The position numbers and the translations under genes were made by a program. A DNA stretch of 54,266 nt, from assembly GCA_963804085.1 (NCBI GenBank), contig CAWDOQ010000012.1, positions 1 to 54,266 on the forward strand, in the 5' to 3' direction. The DNA comes from Chlamydiia bacterium. GTDB taxonomy: Bacteria; Chlamydiota; Chlamydiia; Chlamydiales; Rhabdochlamydiaceae. The notes under the pieces were generated by a model that was given only the letters and a program-made list of their open reading frames with translations, was not told where the DNA came from and did not search any database. How positions within the stretch are numbered: the stretch's first letter is position 1; each line of letters begins with the position of its first letter. Below, in pieces: positions 21,900 through 24,596 of the stretch.

Positions 21900-21996
21900 T
21901 CATCAACGCCCTGATCACCATCGAGGTCGTCCTCGCTGTCTTGAAGGACATTTTCCATTTGATTTAAATTTGTCTTTGTAAATACAAATCGAGCAG

Positions 21997-22869
21997 ATGT
22001 CAAAAAATTCTATACAGGCGATTGTCGACTATTACGAATATTGCGAATCCAACTATCGCACGTATTGGGATCTCGACCGGAGCCTCGCAATGCATTTGGG
22101 TTATTGGGATGAGACCACATCATCTCTATCTGAAGCCCTACGCAGAGAAAATGAAGTTATGGCTGAACTTGCCGGGGTGACCTCTGCAGACCGCGTTCTT
22201 GACGCAGGATGCGGCATGGGCGGCACCTCTATTTTTTTGGCAGAAAAATATGGCTGCCAGGTGGTCGGTATTACCCTATGCGAGAATCAAACTATCCGAG
22301 CTGCGCAGCACGCCAGAAAAAGCAAGCTAAATCCGCCACCTCAATTCGCAACGCAGGACTTTACTAATACATCATTTCCTGCCGAAGGCTTCGATCTGGT
22401 TATGGCAATAGAAAGCGTCTGTCATTCTCGGAAAAAAGCAGACTTTATTACCGAGGCTTTTCGTCTGCTTAAAAAGGGAGGAAGACTTGCTCTTGCCGAT
22501 GGATTTAGAACACAAAAGCAGATCACCGCGAAGGATAAAAACCTCCTTGAAGCCTGTGGAGAGGGTTGGGCTGGTTGCTCATGGGATGTACGAGATGTTT
22601 TCGAAAAAAAATTAAAAAAAACAGGATTTGAGGGAATCTCCTACCATAATGTCACAAAAAACGTTTTCCCCTCCTTAAAACTCCTGTATGATATCTATTT
22701 GTCTTCAGGCGCCTGTTCACGATCACAAGATCGAACAGCTTTTGAAGAGTATGATTTGCCTCAGAAACTTCAGTTTAAAAACTGCGTTTCTTCAGGACTC
22801 TACCAATTTCAATGCTACAAAAAAAACCTACTTGAATATGGACTTTTTTTTGCACGGAAAAGTTCATGA
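21997..22869 (+). CDS. Class I SAM-dependent methyltransferase (sterol/tocopherol/GPP C-methyltransferase-like)
   Basis: 'MHLGYWD', 'VLDAGCGMGG', 'VVGITL' and 'AIESVCH' motifs. Confidence 0.85.
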   Translation: MSKNSIQAIVDYYEYCESNYRTYWDLDRSLAMHLGYWDETTSSLSEALRRENEVMAELAGVTSADRVLDAGCGMGGTSIFLAEKYGCQVVGITLCENQTIRAAQHARKSKLNPPPQFATQDFTNTSFPAEGFDLVMAIESVCHSRKKADFITEAFRLLKKGGRLALADGFRTQKQITAKDKNLLEACGEGWAGCSWDVRDVFEKKLKKTGFEGISYHNVTKNVFPSLKLLYDIYLSSGACSRSQDRTAFEEYDLPQKLQFKNCVSSGLYQFQCYKKNLLEYGLFFARKSS

Positions 22870-22890
22870 AAAAACCTCAGTTTCCTGAGG
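22869..22890 (-). terminator. Intrinsic terminator between convergent RiPP-islet genes
   Basis: A-tract followed by CCTCAG-TTTC-CTGAGG hairpin. Confidence 0.5.
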
Positions 22891-22920
22891 ATTATCGGGA
22901 AGTGTAGCTTTATCCAGATT

Positions 22921-24015
22921 TTAAGAATTCTGCTTAGGTTGATAGAGACTCGCTTTGAAAAAATGGAAGTAGATTTTTGCTAGGATTTTTTTCCCAGGTA
23001 GAAAAACCAGTTTTATGTGATAAATTTTTCGTGCATAAACAAAGTAATGTTCAGGCCCTTGCTTTTGCAATAAGCCACCAGGCCATTTCAAACAAGATTC
23101 CACTTTTGAAGCTGACGCAAGCTTTTCGCGAACAAGAAGAGCCAGAAGTGGCTCCCAGATTTCTTTTGTGTTTTTGTTTTCTACTAGAAATATTTCAATC
23201 CCCACTTTTAGACCAATCTCTTCTCCGATGTCAAGCGCGAGACCAATACTATTTAATGCTCGCTTCGGAAATTTTGCTAAAAGATCGATGAGTTCTTTAC
23301 AAGGATGAGAATATTTCATTTTTTTAAGTCGATCTTCAAGCAGATATGGATCTTCTGCAAGATTCATGCGAGAGTGTATCCGTATCCCATTCCTAGGTCT
23401 CGCAAGCATGATCCCGGCAGCAATAATAGGTTCTCGGAAAGAGGAGCAAACATCAACGTGATGATCAATGTTTTCTATGCATTTTGAAGAAAGACTTTTC
23501 TCTGCAAGCTGACTGACCAGATCTTTTACAAATTGGGTAAACTTTTTCCCTTGAAACTGCATTGTACATATGAAGAGATTGGGGGCAAGGGGATATCTTC
23601 CGCTGCCAGTATCTAGTTCGATGCCAAAATACCCTTCTTTAAGCTGAGCTTTTGATAAAAAGCGTGTACAGCGCGCCCAAATGTCTTTTGTGCTCATTTT
23701 AGAAAAGACACGCTCTAACCAATACATCGATTGTGCAATATTCGAAGGGTCATGATCGATTTTAATGCCGAGATCAACCCACTTGCTGCCGCTCCCTCCA
23801 TACAGAGGACATTCGAAGAGAAGCCCCTGGGTATTAACGCCTATCAAAGCCTCTTGTTTGAGAAATTCTAACTTTAAAAGCTCTCTCTGCGTGACAATGT
23901 TTTTCTGAAGATAAGGAATAGCCCTGTCTAAAAGACCACAAATATTTCCGGAAACGATCTTTGTCTGTGTAGGAGCTTGTTGCATAATCTTGGTTGTAAT
24001 ATGTCCGAGCGCCAA
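22921..24015 (-). CDS. Putative RiPP-modifying enzyme, peptide prenyltransferase-like
   Basis: Directly downstream of the NHLP precursor; motifs FECPL, IELD, GIMLAR, LALDIGEEIGLKVGIE, WPG and YHIKLVF..AKIY recall proteins in cyanobacterial NHLP/Nif11 clusters (recalled, not searched); start uncertain (TTG 24015 or ATG 23985). Confidence 0.55.
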   Translation of the reverse strand: MALGHITTKIMQQAPTQTKIVSGNICGLLDRAIPYLQKNIVTQRELLKLEFLKQEALIGVNTQGLLFECPLYGGSGSKWVDLGIKIDHDPSNIAQSMYWLERVFSKMSTKDIWARCTRFLSKAQLKEGYFGIELDTGSGRYPLAPNLFICTMQFQGKKFTQFVKDLVSQLAEKSLSSKCIENIDHHVDVCSSFREPIIAAGIMLARPRNGIRIHSRMNLAEDPYLLEDRLKKMKYSHPCKELIDLLAKFPKRALNSIGLALDIGEEIGLKVGIEIFLVENKNTKEIWEPLLALLVREKLASASKVESCLKWPGGLLQKQGPEHYFVYARKIYHIKLVFLPGKKILAKIYFHFFKASLYQPKQNS

Positions 24016-24041
24016 CGCGCGTCATTGCCCGAGAAAATTAT

Positions 24042-24067
24042 AAACCCAGACCTTAAGATCTGGGATT
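24042..24067 (-). terminator. Stem-loop between precursor and modifying enzyme
   Basis: CCCAGA-CCTTAAGA-TCTGGG. Confidence 0.45.
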
Positions 24068-24158
24068 GAATTTGGCCGGGCTTGCGAATCCTCCTCAAAC
24101 CACAAGTTTGAATAGCCCTCTCTGTATCCTACAACCTGTCAAGTTCCCTTTCTTATGG

Positions 24159-24470
24159 TCAGCACCAATTACAGCCAGGGTCTACTGAATAGCCCCCTTT
24201 GGTAACTCCGCCGCCAACTCCACCGCTAATTTTCTCAAGTTGAGCTTCCGTTAATTCACCCATGTCGACAGGAGGTCTTGGCAACACAAAAGTGACTTTC
24301 TTCGGTGTGTCTTCTACACATTCTATCTGAATATTCTCAGGAATATTGTCCAAACCGTATTCTTTCAATGCTTCGCGAGGTTTTTTCAAAAGTAGTGCCT
24401 TAAATTTAGGATCTTTCCAAGCGCGCGCAATGATTTTCTTGCGTATCATTTCGTAATCGTTTTCGTGCAT
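24159..24470 (-). CDS. NHLP (nitrile-hydratase-like leader) RiPP precursor; predicted core VGGGVTKGGYSVDPGCNWC
   Basis: 'IIARAWKDPKFKALLLKKPREAL...VEDT....FVLP' NHLP leader; double-Gly site 'ELTEAQLEKISGG'; AGGAGG SD before ATG 24470. Confidence 0.9.
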   Translation of the reverse strand: MHENDYEMIRKKIIARAWKDPKFKALLLKKPREALKEYGLDNIPENIQIECVEDTPKKVTFVLPRPPVDMGELTEAQLEKISGGVGGGVTKGGYSVDPGCNWC

Positions 24471-24596
24471 ACCCCCTCCTGTTTGTAAGAAGTATAAATC
24501 TGCATTTACAAAATTGCGCATTAATCAGGCAAACTAAATCTTTCCGTACGGAACACATCATGAACTCATAACAGAGATCATTGAAAAGAAAGAAAT

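Follow-up and report, generated by a model that had tools for sequence, protein, structure and literature searches.

Lipidation confers bioactivity on peptides, and prenyltransferases that act on peptides synthesized on ribosomes and post-translationally modified (RiPPs) are wanted as engineering tools. The characterized RiPP prenyltransferases are those of the cyanobactin type, those of the ComQ/PalQ type, and MppC. Here we analyze a stretch of DNA of 54,266 nucleotides (the window) from a Chlamydiia bacterium (GenBank assembly GCA_963804085.1, contig CAWDOQ010000012.1), in which a three-gene islet encodes a precursor with a nitrile hydratase-like leader peptide (NHLP), an enzyme predicted to fold as a prenyltransferase (PT) barrel, and a methyltransferase dependent on S-adenosylmethionine (SAM). 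Our reading, to which we give a probability of roughly 0.6, is that the islet is a minimal NHLP RiPP cassette whose barrel enzyme prenylates the leader-bound core peptide, most likely at Tyr94 of the precursor.

MppC is an ABBA prenyltransferase that needs the entire Nif11 leader of its precursor and geranylates one Trp of a lanthionine-cyclized core (PMC12715784). Its gene lies beside a terpene synthase gene in the mpp cluster of Moorena producens, which also encodes a LanM and a flavin halogenase (PMC12715784, and the available part of PMC11791876). Cyanobactin prenyltransferases modify RiPP side chains that include Tyr, Ser and Thr (PMC12715784, with the accessible text of PMC4603692). For the PalQ/ComQ type, the accessible portion of PMC10853753 describes a very small cluster, made up of the NHLP precursor PalX and a single prenyltransferase, in which the leader enhances the reaction. 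As for environmental chlamydiae, 'RiPP-like' clusters have been predicted, according to the part of PMC9666466 that was available. An earlier reading of the window, made from its letters alone (the sequence-only reading), knew of no characterized RiPP from Chlamydiota; the literature that we searched likewise yielded such predicted clusters only, and neither a characterized chlamydial RiPP nor a description of the present enzyme family was found in it.

An NHLP precursor beside a predicted prenyltransferase barrel

The precursor lies in an open reading frame (ORF) on the reverse strand, 24159..24521, that counts 120 aa from its first ATG. A strong AGGAGG-type site precedes an internal ATG at 24470, and translation from there gives a precursor of 103 aa (24159..24470). 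Residues 1-84 form the leader, which ends in ...ELTEAQLEKISGG, and are followed by a 19-aa core, VGGGVTKGGYSVDPGCNWC. The precursor scored 73.9 bits against the NCBIfam model TIGR03793 leader_NHLP (cut-off 50.9; 74.5 bits in the whole-genome scan) and 50.6 against Pfam NHase_alpha (cut-off 27.2). Toward its end the leader carries Leu at -12 and -7, Ile at -4 and Gly-Gly at -2/-1, with cleavage predicted between ...ELTEAQLEKISGG and Val. Both the L(X)4L and the double-Gly motif are present; these are recognized by C39 peptidase domains and RiPP enzymes (PMC12715784, and the accessible part of a 2026 preprint). The leader contains a single Cys and lacks the CxxCSC metal-binding motif of nitrile hydratases, the definitions of NHLP motifs (double Gly, absent CxxCSC) being those given in the available parts of PMC4603692 and the same preprint. 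The Gly-rich core contains, in precursor numbering, Tyr94, Cys100, Trp102 and Cys103. Spliceotide chemistry, with excision at Xaa-Tyr-Gly, was dropped as a candidate because there is no radical SAM gene in the islet and no Tyr-Gly in the core.

These results uphold the sequence-only reading in its description of a 103-aa NHLP precursor with a double-Gly site and a 19-aa core, and of an NHLP-type RiPP cassette. Its term 'proteusin-type' holds in part: the leader is of the NHLP class, but no PoyD-type epimerase (TIGR04517) was found in the source genome (2.13 Mb in 24 contigs, 91% complete), a weak negative because the control genomes returned no match either. A YcaO was likewise not found in the source genome, and so the barrel enzyme is the sole dedicated modifying enzyme in the precursor's reach. 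Seven NHLP precursors in the same genome exceed the cut-off; they are spread over five contigs, and their cores are unrelated.

The enzyme encoded next to the precursor was modeled with AlphaFold2 from a six-row alignment (pLDDT 81, pTM 0.83). The model contains five alpha-alpha-beta-beta units that build a ten-stranded antiparallel barrel, the arrangement that defines the ABBA fold. Foldseek returned 95 matches in the PDB with E <= 0.001 and a probability of 1.0 to DMATS1, PriB and NphB; the matches listed were all aromatic prenyltransferases (DMATS1, PriB, NphB/Orf2, AmbP1/3, FamD1, EpzP, CloQ, CymD, CdpNPT and FunA). VIA-align superposed 260-313 residues at an identity of 6-13%, with Z of 19.4 for FunA, 19.0 for MpnD, 18.7 for DMATS1 and about 15 for NphB/Orf2, and the 50 entries listed (Z 19.4-14.6) were prenyltransferases throughout. 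Neighbors of the enzyme in the ESM Atlas include Trp_DMAT, PTase_Orf2 and DUF5838 clusters. The PT barrel is not known outside prenyltransferases. The predicted model thus gives good support to a PT-barrel fold for this 364-aa protein, and fold and gene neighborhood together bear out the resemblance to prenyltransferases that the sequence-only reading had proposed. A prediction of the enzyme-precursor complex gave a median score of 0.29 against a mark of 0.32, which counts neither for nor against binding.

A word-indexed search of 5.8 billion clusters returned six cluster representatives, the window's own and five others, one of them from a Chlamydiales metagenome-assembled genome (MAG). A six-sequence profile, run against 1.84 billion proteins, matched 1391 representatives with E <= 0.001, of which 357 reached <= 1e-10 and 16 reached <= 1e-30; as the 1391 have no curated model, the family is both sizeable and uncurated. 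Among 40 relatives scanned with Pfam, 32 were without any family and none matched an aromatic-prenyltransferase family, and none of 79 relatives matched any NCBIfam model. A squalene-hopene-cyclase-like domain is fused to the enzyme in three of the 40 (one from Nostoc), which ties the family to isoprenoid chemistry; other relatives are fused to domains annotated as FAD-binding or as 2-oxoglutarate (2OG) oxygenase. In ABBA enzymes, the diphosphate, Mg2+ and the acceptor are handled in the barrel interior by Arg, Lys and Tyr together with acidic residues. Across the 79 family sequences, E58, R196 and Y339 (numbering of the window enzyme) are invariant, and D71, W103, E123, D125, P135, M193, D252, G262, W301, G303, K325 and K337 nearly so. 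Most of the conserved residues fall on predicted barrel strands, with R196, K325, K337 and Y339 on or beside strands.

Genomic company of the family and its precursor cores

All 14 family loci that we inspected, ten in Chlamydiota and four on cyanobacterial or Azospirillum plasmids, have an NHLP or Nif11 precursor nearby. In our reading, the family consists of PT-barrel enzymes dedicated to NHLP/Nif11 precursors. Their company is the co-occurrence, cyanobacteria included, to which the sequence-only reading had pointed. Of the outcomes that it had named as refuting it, the two open to computation (no co-occurrence with such precursors, no PT-barrel fold) did not arise, and the nearest records, from Chlamydiales or Chlamydiae MAGs, agree with the chlamydia-like host that it had proposed. 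A six-frame profile search showed that the source genome has three PT-like genes, each beside one of its seven NHLP precursors. Of 400 genomes scored in the phylum sample, five have members of the family, nine PT-like genes in all. Every one of the nine lies <=1.3 kb from an NHLP gene above the cut-off, and eight lie within 600 nt; chance adjacency, by a rough estimate from 6-12 NHLP genes per genome of 1.6-2.1 Mb, would be roughly 2% per gene. A metagenome scan for further loci returned only an already known record. Tandem arrays of NHLP precursors with short, diverse cores were also seen in related genomes, with eight genes at G099:C1:1853969-1857538 and nine at G031:C3:264996-276278.

The two paralogues in the source genome differ in their surroundings. 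One (C17:163321-164337, 338 aa) stands immediately upstream of an NHLP precursor whose core is AGNEPLGYFDGVLHKLHNYPH, and ispF, an isoprenoid gene, is convergent to the pair (C17:162416-164337; locus L013:9417-11338). The other (C19:80276-82498) is a 740-aa fusion of a PT-like domain with FAD_binding_4, and belongs to a cluster at C19:75636-82498 (L016:5640-12499) that comprises a LanM in two ORFs, an FAD-dependent oxidoreductase, an NHLP precursor with the core SGHCLPTTVSWGGGCI, and the fusion itself. The two LanM ORFs, a DUF4135 half and a LanC half, each score above the TIGR03897 cut-off.

One further locus with an NHLP precursor, L001, comes from a Chlamydiales MAG, and its orthologue is 76% identical to the window enzyme. 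The gene order there (L001:5137-9164) is NHLP precursor, orthologue, SagB dehydrogenase, a cyclodehydratase that is a leader-binding/YcaO fusion, and another NHLP precursor, whose core is rich in Cys. Because so close an orthologue sits in an azole-forming cluster, the comparison suggests that the islet is a reduced version of a YcaO/SagB cluster such as that of L001. A more distant orthologue (44% identical), in locus L002, is divergent from an NHLP-like precursor. On its 3' side (L002:9033-10693) are a gene scoring 302.8 bits on the MNIO bufferin-maturase model (cut-off 310) and a partner ORF. A radical SAM gene with its best match to the viperin family was noted upstream (L002:6025-7553).

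When plasmids were searched by tblastn, the window's own protein gave no match; its Nostoc relative P0077 gave four PT-like loci, all with precursors within about 5 kb. The locus on a plasmid of Nostoc sp. UHCC 0926 has two Nif11 and two NHLP precursors and a PoyD-type epimerase. In Pseudanabaena galeata, a 597-aa protein with 2OG oxygenase as its annotation contains the PT-like domain, and a LanM and Nif11 precursors are nearby. The Acaryochloris locus, with the PT-like gene in pieces, has a Nif11 precursor, a radical SAM C-methyltransferase and a class I methyltransferase, and that of Azospirillum sp. B510 has two NHLP precursors and one YcaO. A profile built from chlamydial sequences only (A1) recognized the three cyanobacterial plasmid proteins, which were the ones scored, with E of 8e-23, 2e-8 and 7e-11 when the database size was set nominally to one million. 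On the Acaryochloris plasmid pMB07 (L062:6745-8371), the last PT-like segment runs in frame into an ORF for a class I SAM methyltransferase, and the two may once have been a fusion.

We then compared cores across all above-cut-off NHLP genes of the five enzyme-carrying genomes plus the L001 pair, each cut at the double-Gly motif; G084:C41:700-849, which is below the cut-off and has an internal stop, and the second precursor of L001 were left out. Tyr occurs in 8 of 10 enzyme-linked cores and in 11 of 34 other cores (residue frequency 8.6% vs 2.3%), with a two-sided Fisher p of 0.011 that overstates the case, given related genomes and motif-predicted core boundaries. Trp (3/10 vs 10/34) and Cys (6/10 vs 19/34) are not enriched. 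The first Tyr stands at core position 4-10 in all Tyr-bearing enzyme-linked cores. Among the three orthologous cores (window, L001 and L002), a Gly-preceded Tyr is present in each, and Trp in the window core only. These patterns make Tyr94, which stands at core position 10 and has the conserved Gly-Tyr context, the most likely acceptor, ahead of Trp102. The latter was the choice of the sequence-only reading, which is not sustained on this point. The choice of acceptor may differ between paralogues; the core paired with the C19 fusion contains Ser, Thr and Cys as well as Trp, and has no Tyr.

The repeat-bounded islet and its methyltransferase

The features of the islet are collected in Table 1. 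Every element that the sequence-only reading had noticed was recovered where that reading had placed it, including the duplicated rsmI 3' end around the three genes.

Table 1. Positions in the window of the islet features and its borders
Feature	Position	Strand	Basis or remark
rsmI 3' end, remnant copy (left border of the islet)	21825..21897	-	direct repeat D1; translation gives 18 of 21 C-terminal residues of rsmI
Class I SAM-dependent methyltransferase, 290 aa	21997..22869	+	Pfam Methyltransf_11/25/31, CMAS
Hairpin with T-run between the convergent methyltransferase and enzyme genes	22875..22890	.	consensus scan: 6-bp stem, 4-nt loop, TTTTTT on the - strand
PT-barrel (ABBA-fold) prenyltransferase-like enzyme (predicted)	22921..24015	-	364 aa from TTG; 354 aa from ATG at 23985
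Hairpin separating the precursor and enzyme genes	24045..24064	-	consensus scan: 8-bp stem, 4-nt loop, then TTTATAATTT
Core peptide, 19 aa, VGGGVTKGGYSVDPGCNWC	24162..24218	-	translation; boundary from the canonical double-Gly motif
NHLP leader, 84 aa	24219..24470	-	TIGR03793, 73.9 bits; AGGAGG-like site before ATG at 24470
Functional rsmI 3' end (right border of the islet)	24596..24668	-	direct repeat D1; rsmI is 24597..25304

The two copies of repeat D1 (73 nt, 81% identical) bracket exactly three genes, those for the methyltransferase, the enzyme and the precursor. The intact rsmI scored 85 bits on TIGR00096, under the equivalog cut-off. As the sequence-only reading had noted, the islet itself has no YcaO, LanM, radical SAM or C39 gene by ORF listing, Pfam and NCBIfam. 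Its further proposal that the three genes moved as one unit fares less well: the repeats do enclose them precisely, but the repeat is the sole basis, no integrase is present in the islet, and no relative with an empty site was found when the rsmI loci of relatives were compared. The holA-rsmI synteny is kept in seven of nine such loci, a downstream MORN gene lies within 1.5 kb in none, and the nearest rsmI orthologue is just 59-62% identical; insertion as a unit is therefore only a possibility. GC content (0.37-0.46 in the islet vs 0.41-0.52 in nearby flanks) is not decisive.

The hairpin at 22875-22890 is likely a terminator, and that at 24045-24064 possibly an attenuator. The region has five terminator-like sites where shuffled sequences have 3.2 +/- 1.8, so that the hairpins are plausible but alone not beyond chance. 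Among neighboring genes, MORN-repeat protein genes flank both the islet (window 20818-21735) and the C19 LanM/PT cluster (C19:74700-75623 of the source genome). Farther out, the ORF at 19526-20566 of the window scored 198.6 bits on the equivalog model for a bifunctional Ada-like regulator/O6-methylguanine methyltransferase (cut-off 345), and above the cut-off of the ogt domain model TIGR00589.

The convergent SAM methyltransferase gene is present as the sequence-only reading had it, and the enzyme is of class I. Its best solved relatives are small-molecule enzymes, namely MitM (E 9e-23) and a glucose O-methyltransferase, and it matches geranyl diphosphate C-methyltransferase weakly. Ten other genomes of the phylum sample have orthologues of 42-50% identity; one other family has them in 8 of 46 genomes, and the family to which the window belongs in 0 of 90. 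None of the ten carries a PT-like match, and none has a PT-like or precursor gene in the flanks of the methyltransferase; five of the ten flanks have a coproporphyrinogen-oxidase-like gene together with a 227-235-aa outer-membrane-like ORF (labeled by eye). The L001 and L002 loci have no such methyltransferase. A role in the pathway is favored by the repeat-bounded islet and terminator region that the gene shares with the enzyme gene, by the class I methyltransferase directly after the PT-like gene of Acaryochloris (33% identical over 126 residues), and by a methyltransferase-like gene inside the NHLP array of G099. Cyanobactin prenyltransferases can be fused to methyltransferase domains, according to the available text of PMC4603692. 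With orthologues in a non-RiPP context in ten genomes and none at L001 or L002, we nonetheless consider it doubtful that the methyltransferase belongs to the pathway, in which the sequence-only reading had included it.

Proposed pathway, rival readings and known systems

In the pathway that we propose, the enzyme would bind the long leader, by analogy with MppC, and would use a prenyl diphosphate to prenylate the side chain of an aromatic residue in the leader-bound core, most likely Tyr94 and not Trp102. With no LanM in the islet, this substrate would be a linear one. As for the methyltransferase, it may contribute a methyl group and equally may be a passenger. The modified precursor would then be cut after Gly-Gly and exported in trans, and after export the two Cys could form a small C-N-W-C disulfide loop. 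Export would depend on the only C39-peptidase locus of the source genome (contig C22:65766-75408; L011), found by the genome search that the sequence-only reading had advised. This locus also encodes an HlyD-like protein and an outer-membrane efflux protein (OEP), the putative partners of the C39 ATP-binding cassette (ABC) transporter, as well as a second ABC protein, an NHLP precursor and a tyrosine recombinase.

Several results weigh against this reading, and we give them here together with the alternatives that they favor. The enzyme matched no family in Pfam or NCBIfam and nothing significant in the PDB by sequence, and a 79-sequence profile did no better there (two chance-level matches, E about 0.5), so that these searches provide no sequence-level link to characterized prenyltransferases; its catalysis and diphosphate site are inferred from the predicted fold and from conservation only. 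The chief difficulty is an unclear donor supply. IspF and a pair of polyprenyl synthases are encoded in the source genome, which implies some supply of prenyl diphosphates, but searches of its 91%-complete assembly found no IspG, IspH or HMG-CoA reductase. Among 21 genomes (the source and 20 relatives, most at least 90% complete) IspH was found in nine, including two of the four other enzyme-carrying genomes; it was thus not found in three of five genomes with the enzyme, and in G031, which is 99% complete and has two PT-like genes, neither IspH nor IspF was found. The late methylerythritol phosphate (MEP) pathway seems to be patchy in this chlamydial family. Rickettsia scavenges isoprenoid precursors from its host, and here too the precursors may come from the host; alternatively, the missing genes may reflect assembly gaps, or the donor may not be a prenyl diphosphate. 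In a rival reading, the barrel protein acts on the NHLP precursor by another group transfer or another core reaction, or as a leader-binding scaffold. The fusions of relatives to FAD-binding or 2OG-oxygenase-annotated domains are in keeping with it, as are the lack of sequence similarity to known prenyltransferase families and the gaps in the late MEP pathway. We regard it as distinctly unlikely, given that all fold matches listed are prenyltransferases, that the PT barrel is known from such enzymes only, that some relatives are fused to terpene-cyclase-like domains, that the barrel strands bear conserved Arg, Lys, Tyr and acidic residues, and that polyprenyl synthases are encoded in the source genome.

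The same enzyme might instead prenylate the single Trp102 inside the C-N-W-C loop. Indole prenyltransferases are the solved structures nearest to the model, Trp is the residue that both MppC and PalQ prenylate in precursors with long leaders (PMC12715784; for PalQ, the accessible part of PMC10853753), and the C19 paralogue is paired with a core that bears Trp and no Tyr. Two of the ten enzyme-linked cores have no Tyr, a further point against our reading; one of them has Trp only, and the other, with neither residue, is the weakest match. Still, Trp is absent from the cores of L001 and L002, the two closest orthologous loci, enzyme-linked cores show no Trp enrichment, and DMATS1, among the top fold matches, was crystallized with L-Tyr, as the title of the structure states; we consider modification of Trp102 unlikely. 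In a third alternative, the islet is what is left of a larger azole-forming cluster in decay, with an idle enzyme and a peptide that is unmodified, only disulfide-bridged, or not made. This is in keeping with the SagB/YcaO cluster around the 76%-identical orthologue when no YcaO was found in the source genome, and with the repeat scars on both sides of the islet. It is also favored by the state of the C39 transporter, which is split into two overlapping ORFs (C22:69995-70897, C39 plus membrane half, 300 aa; 68734-70026, ATPase half, 430 aa), owing either to a frameshift or to an assembly error, and by the sequencing runs for the stretch, among which no RNA run is listed (seven DNA runs, shares 0.05-0.17). 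However, the three islet ORFs are intact, the enzyme retains every invariant or nearly invariant residue of the 79-sequence alignment (numbered on the enzyme), the precursor has a strong ribosome-binding site and an intact leader above the cut-off, and two more intact enzyme-precursor pairs exist in the source genome. Decay appears to us the least probable of the three.

Prenylation of the leader-bound core, most likely at Tyr94, remains the reading that we prefer. Its widest form is tentative: a large uncatalogued family of leader-guided NHLP/Nif11 prenyltransferases, acting here alone on a linear core, would yield a Tyr-prenylated lipopeptide, the first modified RiPP of a chlamydia-like, host-dependent bacterium. 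If this is true, the lipid donor may derive from the host cell, and environmental chlamydiae make modified peptides, which raises the questions of their role inside the host cell and of the origin of the prenyl donor. The islet offers an entry point to about 1400 representative sequences that have no Pfam or NCBIfam model, a family whose 14 inspected loci span three phyla, and its two-gene form, precursor and enzyme, is the simplest pair for the study of leader dependence, acceptor choice and donor length.

Among known systems, MppC appears to be the closest characterized analogue, likened by description and not by sequence. The shared traits would be a soluble ABBA-type enzyme and a gene beside a precursor with a long, structured leader; the need for the leader and the modification of one aromatic residue are established properties of MppC. 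At the level of the cluster, relatives of the window enzyme are fused to terpene-cyclase-like domains or lie beside LanM and FAD enzymes; the C19 cluster resembles the mpp cluster and is larger than the islet, and its precursor core is much like MppE. The islet differs from the MppC system in that it has no LanM, its leader is NHLP and not Nif11, the likely acceptor is Tyr and not Trp, and the host is chlamydia-like. The cyanobactin F-family (PagF, LynF and PatF) shares the ABBA barrel and the prenylation of RiPP side chains, and some members are fused to methyltransferase domains. These enzymes are, however, leader-independent and act on cores released by PatA/PatG proteases. No protease of the PatA/PatG type is among the three islet genes, the whole genome not having been searched for one. 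Cyanobactin enzymes are absent among the fold matches listed, which is no evidence of a different fold.

The best structural matches are of the DMATS type (FunA, MpnD, DMATS1 and FgaPT2; Z 19.4-17) and of the NphB/CloQ type (NphB; Z about 15), but the substrates of these enzymes are small molecules or free amino acids, the identity is 6-13%, and there is no sequence match at the profile level. PalQ shares with the islet the combination of an NHLP precursor and one prenyltransferase in a tiny cluster, but it belongs to the isoprenyl-synthase superfamily, not to the ABBA barrels, and modifies a C-terminal Trp (from the available part of PMC10853753). With proteusins of the polytheonamide type the islet has in common the NHLP leader, and a Nostoc relative of the enzyme has a PoyD-type epimerase next to it, along with NHLP/Nif11 precursors. 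The islet differs from these in that no radical SAM epimerase or C-methyltransferase was found in it or in the genome, and in a core of only 19 aa. As leader-guided ABBA prenylation of RiPPs is already known, what would be new here, by analogy with these systems, is an ABBA enzyme of an uncurated family that works on a linear NHLP substrate, in a chlamydia-like host and in a minimal form of two genes.

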